From NCBI GenBank assembly GCA_964514135.1, contig CAZEPL010000003.1, positions 6,549-70,548 of the forward strand: a stretch of 64,000 nucleotides of DNA, written 5' to 3'. Position numbers and translations under genes: made by a program. Below, piece by piece: positions 11,323-29,750 of this stretch. Source of the stretch: an uncultured Spirochaetaceae bacterium (lineage in GTDB: Bacteria; Spirochaetota; Spirochaetia; SZUA-6; RPPD01). Each line of letters starts with the position of its first letter. Position 1 is the first letter of the stretch. The notes under the pieces were generated by a model that was not told the DNA's origin, did not search any database, and saw nothing but the letters and a program-made list of their open reading frames with translations.

Positions 11323-11781
11323 TTAATACATCATATTGATTACAATATGCTGCTCTAATTCCGAAACCACAATTGAGGCATCTTTAAAGGAGGGGGCACT
11401 CATAAAGCCCATGGCGTCATTGGAAAAACCATATCCTTCGAGTGGTATTCCAAAAAGGCCTTTGTCCATAGAGCCGTTGCTGTTTTCATCATGTAATAAA
11501 CACACGGCATAGGTGCCTGACTGGGCAAGATTAAAAACAGCCTGCGCTTTTCCATTCTTGATGGAGACTGCCGCTTTATCAATGGCTTTTTCGGCGTCTT
11601 CCGGGAAACCCGCTTCGCTGTTATACAGGGCAAGCAATACTTTTCCCTTGTCATTTCGCAGCCCCTTTATGGTTACATGCAGAGTGCTTGCTTCCTGCTC
11701 AGCCCAAAGCGTAACTAAAAAACATATGGTTATCAGTAAAATTATTATTCGTTTCACTATTACTCCTATCAGCGGTTTCAT
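11323..11781 (-). CDS. DUF2141 family protein (copy A)
   Basis: A signal peptide is followed by LHVTIKGLRNDKGKVLLALYNSEAGFPED...GIPLEGYGFSN, which is the DUF2141 signature. Confidence 0.7.
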   Translation of the reverse strand: MKPLIGVIVKRIIILLITICFLVTLWAEQEASTLHVTIKGLRNDKGKVLLALYNSEAGFPEDAEKAIDKAAVSIKNGKAQAVFNLAQSGTYAVCLLHDENSNGSMDKGLFGIPLEGYGFSNDAMGFMSAPSFKDASIVVSELEQHIVINMMY

Positions 11782-14788: not shown

Positions 14789-15247
14789 TCAATATACTAT
14801 ATTAATTGTGATATAATAATCTGATCCTATAACCTCTATCGAGGCATCTTTAAAGGGGGGGGCGCTCATAAATCCTTTGGCATCATTAGAGAACCCATAC
14901 CCTTCCAGTGGAATACCAAAAAGGCCTTTATCCATGGAGCCGTTATTGTTTTCATCGTGTACTAAACACACCGCATAGGTACTGGAATGGTCAAGATTAA
15001 AAACAGCCTGCGCTTTGCCATTCTTGATGGACACTACCGCCGTATCAACGGCTTTTTCGGCGTCTTCCGGGAAACCCGCTTCACTGTTATACAGGGCAAG
15101 CAGTACTTTTCCCTTATCATTTCGCAGCCCCTCTATGGCTACATGTAGAGTGCATTCTTGTTTCTCAGCCCAAAGCGAGACTAAAAAACATATGGTTATC
15201 AGTAAAATTATTATTCGTTTCATTATTACTCCTTTTTGCGGTTTCAT
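14789..15247 (-). CDS. DUF2141 family protein (copy B, paralog)
   Basis: It is about 85% identical to copy A at protein level by eye. A C8/G8 homopolymer lies in the codons for APPF. Confidence 0.7.
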   Translation of the reverse strand: MKPQKGVIMKRIIILLITICFLVSLWAEKQECTLHVAIEGLRNDKGKVLLALYNSEAGFPEDAEKAVDTAVVSIKNGKAQAVFNLDHSSTYAVCLVHDENNNGSMDKGLFGIPLEGYGFSNDAKGFMSAPPFKDASIEVIGSDYYITINIVY

Positions 15248-15360: not shown

Positions 15361-15540
15361 CAGTAATTGAATAAGATCTCTGCTGCACTTGGCAACCGCC
15401 GGCACACCTCCCCCCGGCTGCACCCACTGTCCGGTCATATAAAAATCTTTTAGTCCCGGCAATCTTTTTTCATACTGCTTACCAAAGTTTTCCGGTGTAA
15501 ACAGCCAGCCCTCAAACGATCCCTGCCGGTTCTTTTATTA
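15361..15540 (-). pseudogene. CrtI-like oxidoreductase C-terminal remnant (second copy)
   Basis: The DNA is near-identical to 11880-12060 and encodes the ...PGGVPAVA...ILFNYCAIK-like C-terminal end. It is truncated upstream. Confidence 0.5.
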
Positions 15541-24308: not shown

Positions 24309-26612
24309 TTACTTTATGACTTTACTCACTAAGAGTATCTCGCCCTGGTCAGTCGCCAGAATGAGCTGTTTATCTCCGACAAGCGGGCGGCAGCCGATCC
24401 GGGCATCGATTTTAATCAATCTCTGCACATTGCCTGTCATAGCGTCTGCAATGACCAAGGTTCCGTCATTCCTGCTGTAGTATAGTCTTCCGTTCAGATA
24501 AAGCGGAGGAGCCGTTACATGAGGAAGCGGTCTAAATAATGCCCTGCCGTTTGCAGCAGAGAATGCGTAAATCTTATCGGCAGCATATATGTATACTGCT
24601 TTTTCAAGCGCAATTATTTCTTGATGCGGGTAGATATTTGAATTAGGATCAAGTTTTTTCTGCCAGACTATGCTTTTGCTATTCAGATCAACACATACCA
24701 GCATACCTTTTCTTCCACAGAAATAAGCCCTGCCCTGGGAAACACTGATTGGAATAGCTATCGGACCGAAAGCTTGGGTTTTCAGCGGCTGAGGATCAGG
24801 CGCTCCGCTCTGTACGTCCATACTAACAAGCTCTCCCGTTAGGTTAACTATATATATTTTACCTTTATACACCACTGGTGTCATTAGTGAACCGCCGGGT
24901 ATCTGATACTCTTTTTGGGTGGTGCCATTCTGTAAATCGATAATTTGGATAGCGGAATCAGTAGCAAAAAGCCCGTTATTGCCTAATACCACTATACGCC
25001 TTCCGAACATTTGATTTTCCACGGTAGTCAATGCTCTGCGCTTAAGCACCTTACCCGAAGCGACCTGTATGATAACCAGCTCTCTGGAACCCGCGAAGTA
25101 GAGATTACTGCCGATAACTTTAGGCCAGGAATTATGATTGGGATTGTTCGACGTTTCTTGCGACCATACAATACTGCCATTGCTGTCAAAGGCATAAACT
25201 TTTCCCTGGTTACTGGCTGCTACGATCAGCTCACCTGCCGGCAGCATTTCTCCCACAAAACGAGCGTCAGCCAGCTTAACTTTCTTAATCGGAACTACTT
25301 CTCTTGTTATCCCGGCCGGTTTCTTCTCTTTGCCTGTATCTATTAATCCCACTGCCTTATTCAGCTCATCCTTTGCTTTGACTTCGCTTTTAGGCTCCTT
25401 TTCTTCCTGCTCCTTTTCCGCCTTTGAAAGCTCCTGTAATACAATAGTGTAGTCCTTTTGGGTTGCTATATTGGTTTCTACTGTTACACTTTGCTTATTA
25501 AATCCGGATTTCTTTACCGTAAATTCAAGCGTTTTACCTTCTTCATATAGTTTTTGAAATCTTCCTTTGCCAACAGATACACCGTCAAGATATATATCCG
25601 CATCTTTTGGTTCGGTTGCGATTTTAATCTTAATTAATACGGGGACCGTTTTTGTTAATTGAATTTTATCTTTATCTTCGGAAGACTTTTCCGCTGCCAT
25701 ACTGACTTCTTTAATCTCTACCTGATCCAGCTTTTTAAGTTCATCCTCTTTTTCAGCTGAGATCTCTTGCGGCGGTTTAATTACCTTATTAATCTTATCA
25801 TTCGTTTCTGTAACCAGAGCAGAAACTGTTTCCAACTCCGCTTCTGTGAGCTCTTCAGCCTGATCGGCCTTTTTTACTTCATCTACCATAACCTTGACTA
25901 TCTGCTCGGTTTCTTTCGCGGCTTCTTCATCTATGGTCACTTCCTGACGCGCTGTAACAACCAACGCCATACCCTCCATTTTTTTAACCAACGCTTTAAG
26001 CTTGGTATTGTCAAGTTGAGTCTGCTCCTGTATCTTATCCGATTCCGCGCTCTCAGGGACTATTGTTACCGCTCCCTCTTTTACAGCTAATACGGTTTCT
26101 TTAGACTCCGTTACCCGTACTGAAAATTCAGTTCCGCGGATACCGCATACTGCCGTGCGAGTACGGACTTTAAAAGACTCTTTACCGGATAATTTGGAAA
26201 CTTTGCACAGAACCGATCCCACAGCCAGATCAATGTCTACTGCTGTCTGTTCCGGTTCCAACCAAAATTCCTTTAGGGAAATTTCCGTATTCTCCTGAAC
26301 TCTTACCACAGATTTCTGTCCAAACTGCAGCTCGCAAAGTGAATCAGCTCCGACCTTCACAACTTCATCGGGATGCACGATATTGCCAATTTCTAAATAC
26401 TCCCATTCAGCTGTCCCTTTAACATACACCTCGCCGGATACGAAGATTACCAAAGCCTCTTCATAGGTCAAAGTTGCTTTTCCCGATTCAAGGTCTTGAT
26501 CCGATAAAGATTCAGTTCGAGTAACCATCTGTGCAGGCTGGGGACATGAATAGAAAAAAGCACATACTCCTATCATGAAAATTATGAGGATTAACTTTGT
26601 CGGTTTAAGCAT
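24309..26612 (-). CDS. Exported multi-domain protein: FecR-like + coiled-coil + PEGA + PQQ-like beta-propeller repeats
   Basis: After the signal peptide, the FecR-like region is VVRVQENTEISL...GIRGTEFSV. The PEGA domain is IATEPKDADIYLDGVSVGKG. Propeller repeats near the C-terminus include GKVYAFDSNGSIVWSQ. Confidence 0.55.
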   Translation of the reverse strand: MLKPTKLILIIFMIGVCAFFYSCPQPAQMVTRTESLSDQDLESGKATLTYEEALVIFVSGEVYVKGTAEWEYLEIGNIVHPDEVVKVGADSLCELQFGQKSVVRVQENTEISLKEFWLEPEQTAVDIDLAVGSVLCKVSKLSGKESFKVRTRTAVCGIRGTEFSVRVTESKETVLAVKEGAVTIVPESAESDKIQEQTQLDNTKLKALVKKMEGMALVVTARQEVTIDEEAAKETEQIVKVMVDEVKKADQAEELTEAELETVSALVTETNDKINKVIKPPQEISAEKEDELKKLDQVEIKEVSMAAEKSSEDKDKIQLTKTVPVLIKIKIATEPKDADIYLDGVSVGKGRFQKLYEEGKTLEFTVKKSGFNKQSVTVETNIATQKDYTIVLQELSKAEKEQEEKEPKSEVKAKDELNKAVGLIDTGKEKKPAGITREVVPIKKVKLADARFVGEMLPAGELIVAASNQGKVYAFDSNGSIVWSQETSNNPNHNSWPKVIGSNLYFAGSRELVIIQVASGKVLKRRALTTVENQMFGRRIVVLGNNGLFATDSAIQIIDLQNGTTQKEYQIPGGSLMTPVVYKGKIYIVNLTGELVSMDVQSGAPDPQPLKTQAFGPIAIPISVSQGRAYFCGRKGMLVCVDLNSKSIVWQKKLDPNSNIYPHQEIIALEKAVYIYAADKIYAFSAANGRALFRPLPHVTAPPLYLNGRLYYSRNDGTLVIADAMTGNVQRLIKIDARIGCRPLVGDKQLILATDQGEILLVSKVIK

Positions 26613-26808
26613 TCTACCCCCCCCCTCTAGTCATTATTTCTGTAACTTTCTACCATATGCTTTCTTAGATCGAAGTAAAAAACAGAAAAAATTGATTCCA
26701 TTTCAAATTTTACACCTTATCTCAGGCATTTTCAATTATTATGGAAAAAAACTACGTTATGTAAAAAAGTGATCGTCGAATCCGGTGTTTTCTAACCCGA
26801 TAAAAGCG

Positions 26809-27921
26809 CTAAAAACGATAAGCCGCACCCAAAGATATGAACTGTATCTGTACTGCAGAACCCTGACCTTCATAAGGAAGCTCAAGGCCGGCAATCAGTC
26901 CGAATAAAATATGCGGATTGAACACAAATGAAAAATTTGTTTGTACTGCTATATTCGGACTTATATTATAGATAAAGCTGATGCGTAAGGGTATTTGAGC
27001 AAAAAAGAGCCAGGCTGATTCTCCTGCCGCGAGAGAGAGCTGCTCCGGATTTTTATTGTCTAAATCCTGCTTGGCGGTTACCTGCACCGCTCCCGCGAGT
27101 AATGAAATGGAATAGCTGGAGGAAAACACACCGAGTGTGCGAAACACATAACCGGCACCTGCTAAAAATATCAGATTATCGGAAGCAGCCGGCAAGTCAT
27201 CCGGACTGACCGCATCGAATCCGAAGAACATATAATCGTTATAATCAAAATATACTGAAATCAGCAGACCCTGCTGCCGTTCAAAATACCAGACAAAATC
27301 CAATTCCAAAGGAAAGGGAAATTGAATTCTTGGCCTGAGCGTGAATTTGGCCTCGTCAATATCCGAAGTATTGGCTTTTAAAATCGATCCCACCCATATG
27401 CTGAGTTCAAACGGTCTGGCCATAGCCTCTGCAAACTGAACGGCCTGTATAGTGTCTTTTGTCTCAACATCTTTGATAAGGGAAGTTATCTTTACTTCAG
27501 GCTCTACTTCTCCCAGATGAGAGCTGAACTTGCGGGCCGTGGTTTCGATAAAGCCCTTAAAAGCAGCGTAATTAAGCTTATCGGCAGGGTAGCTAAACTC
27601 AGCGCTGGTAATATTCTCTTTACCCCGTTTAAGTTCAACCAGAACCGTAATCTGATTTGATCCGCCTTTTGTCACAGTAGTTGTGACAACCGATTTGGCC
27701 GCTTCCTTATATTCGGTATTAATTATAGGCTGGATAACCGTAATTAGCGAAGAGAGCATATCAGGTATTGTGGATAACAGCTCTTTGTCCGACTGTGTTT
27801 TATGATTTACCGGTTCAAAATACACACGGTGCAGTACCAATTCCTTATCCTGGGCGCAGAGTGAAAATAAAAGACAAAGCATCAGAAAAAAACTGCACAG
27901 CACTTGTTTCATAAATGCCAC
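26809..27921 (-). CDS. Hypothetical outer-membrane beta-barrel-like protein
   Basis: It has a signal peptide, C-terminal alternating hydrophobic strands and a terminal Phe (LGAAYRF). Confidence 0.4.
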   Translation of the reverse strand: MAFMKQVLCSFFLMLCLLFSLCAQDKELVLHRVYFEPVNHKTQSDKELLSTIPDMLSSLITVIQPIINTEYKEAAKSVVTTTVTKGGSNQITVLVELKRGKENITSAEFSYPADKLNYAAFKGFIETTARKFSSHLGEVEPEVKITSLIKDVETKDTIQAVQFAEAMARPFELSIWVGSILKANTSDIDEAKFTLRPRIQFPFPLELDFVWYFERQQGLLISVYFDYNDYMFFGFDAVSPDDLPAASDNLIFLAGAGYVFRTLGVFSSSYSISLLAGAVQVTAKQDLDNKNPEQLSLAAGESAWLFFAQIPLRISFIYNISPNIAVQTNFSFVFNPHILFGLIAGLELPYEGQGSAVQIQFISLGAAYRF

Positions 27922-29750
27922 CCCAGTCCTACATAGAGCATCATATGCAGAGGCACATAAGAAATACCATCGGGTTCGTCTAAACGCAAGGTTACGGCGT
28001 CAAAGAGAATACCGGTATCAAGATAAAAAGGCATATCACTCATACGGTTGGTAAAATAAAATTTCATACCCGCATTAATCATGGCCCCAAAATAGAGATA
28101 AGGTCCGAAATTATAATCAACACCCATATCAGTTATGGTTATTGCAGGGGTGTACGATGCCGAAACCAGGAGACCGACATAGATATCGCTTTTACTGGAA
28201 CGGAAATAAAATTTTGGTCCCAGAGAAGCATGAAAGTCTATGGCCATCACATCTTCGTCACCCAAAGAGCACGCACCTGCATGTGCACCCACGGCAGCCG
28301 AAAGCGAAATAATAGGATCAAAGATATATTCATATTCGATTCTTAAGGCATTTAAGGGAGTTCGCGGTGTGTTTCTCAACTCCTGCTCCGTAGAACTCGG
28401 TGAGAGGACCTGGTCGCCCAGCATCTGAAGACCCCCCAGCACTGTGAGCACATGCGGCCAGGAACACCTCTTGGCTATAATCCGGTTTTTATAGACCTGC
28501 TTTTCATACGCTGCCAGCTCGGCGGAAACATCACCCTCCTGCTCAAAAATCGGATTACCCGGTTTGGGCAGTACGCGTGAGACCGCTTTACTAAAATTGA
28601 GTGATATATCATCGATGGAATCAAATACGGAAAACCCCGCTTCGCTTATATAGAGTACAGCGTATTTTACGCGCTCTGACTGCACGTCGTACAGGAGCGC
28701 ATGTACAAAAAGTTTTCCCTGGTTTTCCTGATATCTGCCGGCCACAACCAGCTCGGCACCGTTTTTCGCAGCCAGACCGAGATCCGGATAATCGCTTCGA
28801 CCGGGATTGCTGTTCTGTCCGGCGATCCGGATAACCTTTAAATCCTTATCTTTAATGAAGTTAACGTTAAAGGTACTTAAAAATATATTTCCGTAGGGAT
28901 TGTAGTTCTCATCCTGAATATTTAAAAAGGGAAATACCATAATGCTGAAGGTATCTTTTTTAGGTACTGTCGTGTCTTTACCCAGAGCTTCAAGCGTATA
29001 GTACTCCTCCTTATTTATTTCAACGGAAATGATTCTCTTAAGTGGTTTATAACCTTCTTTTTCCAAACGCAGCAGATATTTACCCGTCGAAAGCTCTACT
29101 GCTTTGGGTGTGGTACCCCATTCGATATTATCTATAAAGACACGCGCCCCCGCGGGATTACTATTGATGGTAATGCTCCGGCTGCTTTGGGAAAGATACA
29201 TTTTGGGACGGGCTTTGCCGAAGCCAATATAACCGCTGCCTACCCACGGTTCAAAATCTATATAACCTAAAAGCAACTGAACCGCCTTCTGCTGTTCATC
29301 GGGAGTCACCGGAAGATAAGAAAGCTTTCCGTTTTCCGCTATGTCAAAAGAGTAGGGGAACAGAATAACGGCCTGCGGCTTAATCTCATATTGTTTAATA
29401 AGGGGAGCCCCGTTATTCCCTGCCAAACGTACCTGGTAAGATCCTGCCGTAAGCTTTACAGTCTTTATTCCCCATTCACTACATTGCAGCTCTACCGCAG
29501 CAGTCGTGGGACCGCTGAACTCGAGACTTCCGGCATTATCGATTTGTTTTCCTCTTGAATTCTGCACAGATTTTTGGCAAATGATCACAACAAGGGACTC
29601 GTTTGAATTTGAGGGAGCAGGAAATGTACTACAATTACTGAGAATTAAAAGAATAGCAGTTACTACAAATCCTAATTCTTTTTTCATTATATTAAAAATC
29701 AGATGTTTGTCTATAATTATGACATAGTGTGGGTAAATTGTCAAACACAT
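27909..29750 (-). CDS. Exported PEGA-domain protein
   Basis: The PEGA-like segment is ITINSNPAGARVFIDNIEWGTTPKAVELSTGKYLLRLEKEGYKP. The 3' end overlaps the next gene by 13 nt. Confidence 0.45.
   Translation of the reverse strand: MCLTIYPHYVIIIDKHLIFNIMKKELGFVVTAILLILSNCSTFPAPSNSNESLVVIICQKSVQNSRGKQIDNAGSLEFSGPTTAAVELQCSEWGIKTVKLTAGSYQVRLAGNNGAPLIKQYEIKPQAVILFPYSFDIAENGKLSYLPVTPDEQQKAVQLLLGYIDFEPWVGSGYIGFGKARPKMYLSQSSRSITINSNPAGARVFIDNIEWGTTPKAVELSTGKYLLRLEKEGYKPLKRIISVEINKEEYYTLEALGKDTTVPKKDTFSIMVFPFLNIQDENYNPYGNIFLSTFNVNFIKDKDLKVIRIAGQNSNPGRSDYPDLGLAAKNGAELVVAGRYQENQGKLFVHALLYDVQSERVKYAVLYISEAGFSVFDSIDDISLNFSKAVSRVLPKPGNPIFEQEGDVSAELAAYEKQVYKNRIIAKRCSWPHVLTVLGGLQMLGDQVLSPSSTEQELRNTPRTPLNALRIEYEYIFDPIISLSAAVGAHAGACSLGDEDVMAIDFHASLGPKFYFRSSKSDIYVGLLVSASYTPAITITDMGVDYNFGPYLYFGAMINAGMKFYFTNRMSDMPFYLDTGILFDAVTLRLDEPDGISYVPLHMMLYVGLGWHL

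Follow-up and report, generated by a model that had tools for sequence, protein, structure and literature searches.

An Expanded Poly-G Shine–Dalgarno Tract, Probably Polymorphic in Length, Ahead of a Predicted Lipoprotein Gene in an Uncultured Spirochaete

Results

A Predicted Lipoprotein Gene in a Conserved Cluster

The window, by which we mean the whole stretch of 64,000 nucleotides that was analysed, comes from a lineage of uncultured Spirochaetales known from environmental metagenomes only. A conserved cluster of three genes lies on its minus strand (24309-29750), encoding a 613-aa PEGA-domain protein, a 367-aa protein without a match in Pfam or NCBIfam, and a 767-aa protein with FecR, PEGA and beta-propeller domains; the first two share an ATGA overlap at 27909-27912, and the same order of the three genes is found in the contigs L008, L010, L012 and L014. 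The features around the start of the 767-aa gene are collected in Table 1.

Table 1. Features at the 5' end of the 767-aa gene (window coordinates)
Feature	Position	Strand	Basis or remark
Sigma-70-type promoter, TTGAAA-N17-TAAAAT (predicted)	26707..26735	-	promoter scan, 10/12 match; alignment of orthologues
Upstream ATG (26634-26632) and its frame	26614..26634	-	computed frame analysis
G9 homopolymer (C9 on the plus strand)	26617..26625	-	expanded Shine–Dalgarno sequence by alignment; probably G8/G9 polymorphic among natural populations
TAGA spacer, 4 nt, from tract to start codon	26613..26616	-	read from the sequence
TAG inside the spacer	26616-26614	-	closes the upstream frame after six codons when the tract is G9
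ATG, conserved start of the 767-aa gene	26610..26612	-	orthologue N-termini align on this Met
Signal peptide coding region, MLKPTKLILIIFMIGVCAFFYSC, with conserved Cys at residue 23	26544..26612	-	read by eye from translation and orthologue conservation, no predictor
CDS, 767 aa, predicted lipoprotein: LipL45-like FecR + PEGA + BamB/PQQ-like beta-propeller	24309..26612	-	Pfam, NCBIfam, orthologue set

The FecR/PEGA/PQQ make-up that a preliminary description, made from the letters of the window, had given to the 767-aa protein agrees with Pfam, which places FecR at residues 84-182, PEGA at 328-389 and a PQQ_2/BamB-like beta-propeller at 449-604. NCBIfam adds matches to LipL45, Lsa33 and Lsa19, all three leptospiral lipoproteins, and to BamB; all of these fall far below the family cut-offs and are to be read at the domain level only. 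The N-termini of nine orthologues align on the Met of the ATG at 26612, about 22 residues ahead of a conserved lipobox-like motif, F-x-S/A-C-P, and because they share this Met, the start codon at 26612-26610 is, on the alignment, secure. The motif, with its Cys23, fits a lipoprotein signal peptide, and the product is thus a predicted envelope lipoprotein. Gene callers had missed the corresponding start in two of the orthologues, placing it 17 codons too far in for L008 (1450-1501) and six codons too early for L009 (1501-1519), where the added MEKGER reads through the Shine–Dalgarno (SD) sequence; this is the same kind of ambiguity as the G8 allele, described below, creates in the window gene.

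The coding strand carries ATGACTAGAGGGGGGGGGTAGAATG exactly as the preliminary description wrote it, in the order AATAATGACTAGA-GGGGGGGGG-TAGA-ATGCTTAAA, and both the string and the geometry, nine G ending four bases before the ATG of the 767-aa gene, match the window. The run is the sole stretch of at least nine G or C in the 64 kb, which have a G+C content of 39%. Such a G9 or C9 run was nevertheless present in 21 of 100 dinucleotide-preserving shuffles of the window (mean 0.28), and we rejected statistical rarity as an argument in its favour; the interest of the run rests on comparative evidence, not on its improbability.

The second-longest G/C run of the window, a G8 on the plus strand at 14855-14862 (C8 in coding sense), lies inside an ORF on the minus strand (14789..15247) for a 152-aa DUF2141 protein. 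It forms the codons GCC CCC CCC TTT, around 25 codons before the stop, and a slip of one nucleotide would change the C-terminus; the sole other contig covering the site, L020, has the same run length, and a DUF2141 paralogue near 11392 has an interrupted run, CCCCCTCC. The two paralogous 152-aa genes and their upstream regions make up a duplicated module of about 85% identity (window ~15193-14500 vs 12062-11365), and the Logan contigs L012 and L021 end exactly at its edge, at 15193.

The Run Aligns with the Shine–Dalgarno Sequences of Orthologues

To place the run, orthologous 5' regions were gathered and aligned. A scan of genome contigs gave a single relative, the metagenome-assembled L003. 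Two scans of a metagenome contig collection that lacks the samples used here, one with the flank pattern ATGACTAGA-N{4,16}-TAGAATGCTTAAAC, which does work on the retrieved loci, and one seeded with the protein, gave no match. The leader of the window reads G9-TAGA-ATG, and it reads G8-TAGA-ATG in the contigs whose protein is 100% identical (L001/L014, L002, L012 and L015). At 98% protein identity (L004/L005) it becomes G6-AAAA-ATG, at 79% (L003) G5-AAAGA-ATG and at 77% (L006) again G6-AAAA-ATG, while the five orthologues at 57-62%, L007, L008, L009, L010 and L011, carry GGAGAGGGAG, GGAGAGGGAGG, GGAGAAGGGGGAG, GGGGAG and GGGAGAG, respectively.

The columns of the G run thus hold SD-type purine runs in all of L003-L011. 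Because the SD sequences of the orthologues, be they G5, G6 or of the GGAG type, fill the same alignment columns, the G9 tract is, judged by homology, the SD sequence of the 767-aa gene, and its assignment to that position in the preliminary description stands. The same alignment indicates that in this lineage an ancestral G5-G6 has lengthened to G8-G9, over a nucleotide divergence of about 2% at most. Other genes of the window use a canonical GGAGG, mostly 5-7 nt ahead of the start, which implies a canonical anti-SD. Among the G runs of at least five bases in the window, only the G9 tract sits directly before the start of a long ORF as its SD, and with this single case we rejected the idea that G-run SDs are a habit of the genome.

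Nearly every base of the predicted promoter is kept in the orthologues, even in those whose proteins are 57-62% identical. Because the tract lies some 80 nt downstream of the -10 element of this conserved promoter, it falls, by position, in the 5' UTR and not in a promoter spacer; the promoter scan found no promoter-like site that uses the tract. The surrounding block, ATTGAAAA-N15-AAGGTRTAAAATTTGA (window 26707-26740, minus strand), recurs in L003, L004 and L006-L010 and is far better kept than the rest of the intergenic region, which suggests a strongly constrained promoter or operator.

Tract Length Differs among Near-Identical Contigs

The preliminary description had asked for a comparison of tract lengths, and assemblies provide one. 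The four contigs that span the tract in full and encode an identical 767-aa protein all have G8 where the window has G9; they come from Logan SRR8556697 (L012) and from the JGI samples 3300031351 (L014, the same contig as L001), 3300031337 (L015) and 3300031586 (L002). This is a comparison of assemblies, not of reads, and as some of the Logan and JGI records may share libraries, the number of independent samples is probably about three. The tract is the sole difference between L002 and the window in 3061 nt, and L015 differs from the window by one substitution and the tract in 6.5 kb.

Both lengths occur in one sample, JGI 3300031337, where the G8 contig L015 overlaps with a G9 contig, L017. 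The latter is 100% identical to window 30280-26612 and ends in ...AGA-G9-TAGAA; the initial 127 nt of L015 reach as far as the base at which G8 and G9 first differ. Logan SRR9707989, an assembly made with k=31, breaks at the tract: one contig (L018) ends exactly at ...ACTAGA+G8 and another (L013) starts exactly at G8+TAGAATG, both being 100% identical to the window. We infer that these breaks are branch nodes of the de Bruijn graph and that the reads contained both G8 and G9 or longer. Among runs of eight or nine A or T, the shared 15 kb contain one T9 and six A8/T8, none of which differs in any of the near-identical contigs, and the C8 at 14855 comes out of the assembly of the same sample unaltered.

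Only one other indel separates the near-identical contigs. A minus-strand run at 15410-15415, within GC-rich non-coding sequence, gtgggtgcagccGGGGGGaggtgtgccggcggttgc, between a 599-aa gene (stop 15545) and the DUF2141 gene (start 15247), reads G6 in the window as well as in L020 and L021, against G5 in L012. The window is one G longer here too, and this could hint at a technical bias.

Overall, the assemblies make it likely that the G8/G9 heterogeneity is real, and they point to a polymorphism between, and probably within, natural populations, with G8 the common length and G9 that of the window. The tract is thus a homopolymer of about eight or more G/C just upstream of a gene, as is typical of contingency loci, and, like theirs, its length varies among and within otherwise identical populations, as far as assemblies in which a technical error is possible can tell.

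Predicted Consequences of Tract Length

Slippage inside the run leaves its 3' edge 4 nt from the ATG, and at least five G are present in every allele. SD registers 4-8 nt from the start are available in both G8 and G9, and the modelled energy of the SD:anti-SD duplex reaches a plateau above about G7, or from G5 on with a short 16S tail. The duplex energies were -12.5 to -16.5 kcal/mol with generic CCUCC tails, which may not be the organism's own 16S end, and those of G8 and G9 differed by 0.5-1.4 kcal/mol, depending on the tail assumed. Rfam, at the gathering threshold, found no RNA family in the whole 64-kb window and thus neither a 16S rRNA nor a known leader element.

For every length from G5 to G12, folding of the leader from the predicted transcription start site (TSS) to codon 14 placed the G's at the 3' end of the run in a pairing with AUCCUC (codons 8-10); the last five of them were paired with a probability of 0.67-0.88 over this range, lowest at G9. 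The folds were worse than the mean of shuffled sequences (z-scores of +1.07 for 131 nt and +1.22 for 55 nt). An RNA structural switch that depends on tract length was rejected on these two grounds, the AUCCUC pairing being there at every length and the z-scores positive. The anti-SD-like ATCCTC (26583-26591; codons 8-10, TTA ATC CTC) is kept at synonymous positions in the window, L003, L004 and L006; its pairing with the G run was not accepted as a structure, given folds no better than those of shuffles.

An upstream ATG makes the reading frame of the leader dependent on tract length. With G8 or G11, it comes into frame with the gene and adds MTRGGGR to the n-region of the signal peptide; with G9 or G6, it opens a short upstream ORF (uORF) that ends at a TAG one base before the start, of six codons in G9 (MTRGGG-stop) and five in G6; and with G7 or G10, a uORF of 13 codons overlaps the start. 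The preliminary description had foreseen that G8 brings this ATG into frame and that G9 ends its frame at the TAG, and the computed frames bear this out; two details needed correction, as the ATG is at 26634-26632 instead of 26636-26638 and the G8 leader adds seven residues, not eight, ahead of the original Met. The upstream ATG lacks its own SD, is not in frame with the gene in L004 (G6) or L003 (G5), and shows no conservation beyond these; for these reasons, its contribution is expected to be small. We rejected it as the true start, which would have made the locus a classic intragenic frameshift switch, since the G6 and G5 relatives have it in another frame and every orthologue begins at the downstream Met.

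The preliminary description had gone further and seen in the tract an on/off or volume control. Neither the duplex energy, with at most 1.4 kcal/mol between G8 and G9, nor the folding of the leader, nor the frame of the upstream ATG lends support to that. These models suggest that the effect of the tract on expression is likely modest; calling it a candidate is fair, while "switch" is unproven.

Discussion

Variable G runs ahead of envelope genes are known from several bacteria, and the closest in phylum are those of Treponema pallidum, where upstream poly-G tracts of 7-11 bases at tprE/G/J, tprL and tp0126 vary within isolates and control transcription (PMC7864442). The likeness goes beyond the shared phylum, as G7-G11 runs lie directly upstream of predicted envelope genes and heterogeneity of 8 vs 9 G is found within populations. 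The T. pallidum tracts, however, are in the promoter, either between the -35 and -10 elements or 4 nt before the TSS, whereas ours is in the 5' UTR at the SD sequence, about 80 nt past a conserved promoter; judged from that predicted promoter, it is not a promoter-embedded poly-G of the type of T. pallidum tpr/tp0126 or N. meningitidis porA/opc. A variable homopolymeric G run in an mRNA leader of an envelope-related gene is found in Helicobacter pylori, where the G repeat of the tlpB-hp0102 leader exerts graded, not on/off, posttranscriptional control through the small RNA RepG (PMC8295292); that repeat is separate from the ribosome-binding site and needs the C/U-rich loop of the small RNA, whereas here, the run is the SD itself. 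In Mycobacterium tuberculosis espR, one additional G in a 5'-UTR poly-G raises translation, which has been attributed to a refolding of the UTR that frees the ribosome-binding site (PMC11898584). The single-G insertion proposed to alter translation efficiency there resembles our case; the leader studied here, on the other hand, folds no better than shuffles, and the predicted accessibility of its SD hardly depends on length.

Experiments on Moraxella catarrhalis uspA1 have shown that a one-G change in an upstream G(n) tract toggles between high and low mRNA, a graded control (PMC7302503). Both are G runs upstream of a surface gene, that of uspA1 a few tens of nucleotides before the adhesin ORF, but the uspA1 tract acts at the mRNA level and is not an SD, whereas the run described here is one and is known from sequence alone. 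Finally, intragenic poly-G contingency loci of Campylobacter jejuni and Neisseria (PMC11955535, PMC3786947) slip between G8 and G9 near the 5' end of the gene, and were the upstream ATG the real start, G8 would be ON and G9 OFF; the conserved start of our gene is, however, downstream of the tract, and the 767-aa reading frame is untouched by slippage. The locus thus appears akin to the known variable leader G runs before envelope genes and differs from them in that the run is the SD itself, and the sequence supports none of the known mechanisms.

The reading that we prefer, at a probability of roughly 0.55, is that of a hypermutable but mild SD tract, near-neutral or weakly modulating, rather than an on/off switch. 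The SD of a conserved spirochaetal lipoprotein gene would have grown from G5-G6 to G8-G9, a length at which the run would be prone to replication slippage, and the tract is, on this account, very probably hypermutable. Slippage, which we infer to be the cause of the length variation, would change the number of G's within the run while its 3' edge stays fixed 4 nt from the ATG; every allele would then offer the anti-SD at least five G in a usable register, and the gene is predicted to be translated in all observed states. The sole discrete consequence would be the frame of the SD-less upstream ATG, in frame in G8 and, in G9, opening a uORF of six codons that closes 1 nt ahead of the start. Elsewhere, a change of one G in a 5' leader strongly alters expression, as is known for uspA1 (PMC7302503), espR (PMC11898584) and tlpB (PMC8295292), and "mild" is for that reason a prediction and not a result.

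The same examples lend weight to a true contingency locus, in which the tract length would determine how much lipoprotein is made or which N-terminal form it takes, and would be selected for population heterogeneity. The tract reaches or exceeds the length from which known poly-G tracts vary (PMC7864442, PMC7302503, PMC11955535), G8/G9 variation is seen in assemblies, the growth from G6 to G8/9 took no more than about 2% nucleotide divergence, the gene is predicted to encode an envelope lipoprotein with a LipL45/Lsa-like domain, and both a graded, length-dependent G repeat in a 5' leader (PMC8295292) and a gain in translation from one G more in a 5' UTR (PMC11898584) are documented. Length could act through an over-long G:C/G:U duplex between SD and anti-SD, or unproductive registers, slowing initiation; through the upstream ATG, toggling between an extension (G8, G11), a terminating uORF with re-initiation (G9) and an occluding 13-codon uORF (G7, G10); or through a C/U-rich small RNA that would pair with the run in the way RepG pairs with the tlpB leader of H. 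pylori. We nevertheless consider a contingency locus unlikely: only two adjacent lengths are seen, and in both the SD persists with its 3' edge at the same distance from the start; tract length has hardly any influence on the modelled duplex energy or on leader folding; the upstream ATG is without an SD and its frame is not conserved; no small RNA partner is known, Rfam being without a match in the 64-kb window; and environmental metagenomes, the sole source of the lineage, give no evident host-immune pressure. Less probable still is a version suited to a free-living environmental spirochaete, in which one-G steps of a slippage-prone SD would cycle the leader through three states and make the translation of the lipoprotein heritably, reversibly and gradedly variable. 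G8 and G11 would then extend the signal peptide, the abutting uORF of G9 could couple re-initiation, and the overlapping uORF of G7 and G10 could occlude the start; we regard this as rather speculative.

About as doubtful as the contingency locus is the possibility that the tract is real but its G8/G9 difference technical, with homopolymer miscalls or PCR slippage in the library creating a false graph branch and the true length being fixed, probably at G8. Poly-G is a known weak spot of short-read data, as seen with pmpG (PMC4488443), and G9 is confined to the window and sample 3300031337, where its contig ends 5 nt past the tract in the manner of a graph tip; besides, both indels between the window and near-identical contigs are in G runs, with the window one G longer. 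An error would, however, have to account for a G9 that was chosen as the main path in a contig some 79 kb long and was independently assembled in L017, and for a k=31 assembly that kept both branches rather than removing one, in a region where the T9 and the six A8/T8 runs agree in all contigs and the same sample gives a clean assembly of the C8 at 14855. Very improbable, finally, is a promoter-type switch as in T. pallidum tpr/tp0126 or Neisseria porA, with the tract within or beside the core promoter and the -35/-10 spacing or the binding of an activator governed by tract length. The closest examples in the phylum are indeed promoter poly-G tracts in which the run is followed by the TSS after 4 nt (PMC7864442), and the TAGAAT directly after our tract looks like a -10 hexamer; a TSS following this TAGAAT would, however, fall inside the CDS. 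Given also the scan without a promoter at the tract, the promoter some 80 nt upstream, conserved to 57% identity, and the alignment of the tract columns with the SDs of orthologues, we rejected the promoter-spacer model.

The hypermutable but mild SD tract that we favour has consequences of its own. The locus would exemplify the growth of a G-rich SD into a mutational hotspot, and the tract would explain why contigs break at this point in several assemblies. It is also a warning for annotation, as the start codon and the length of the gene, 767 aa vs a possible 774 aa, hang on the call of a single nucleotide in a homopolymer. In structure and variability, the tract fits a contingency locus, while the in silico proxies predict a weak effect on expression. 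If the length polymorphism is both real and functional, it would represent simple-sequence contingency variation acting through the ribosome-binding site itself, and this in an uncultured spirochaete from the environment, unlike most documented cases, which come from host-adapted pathogens and act via promoters or reading frames.
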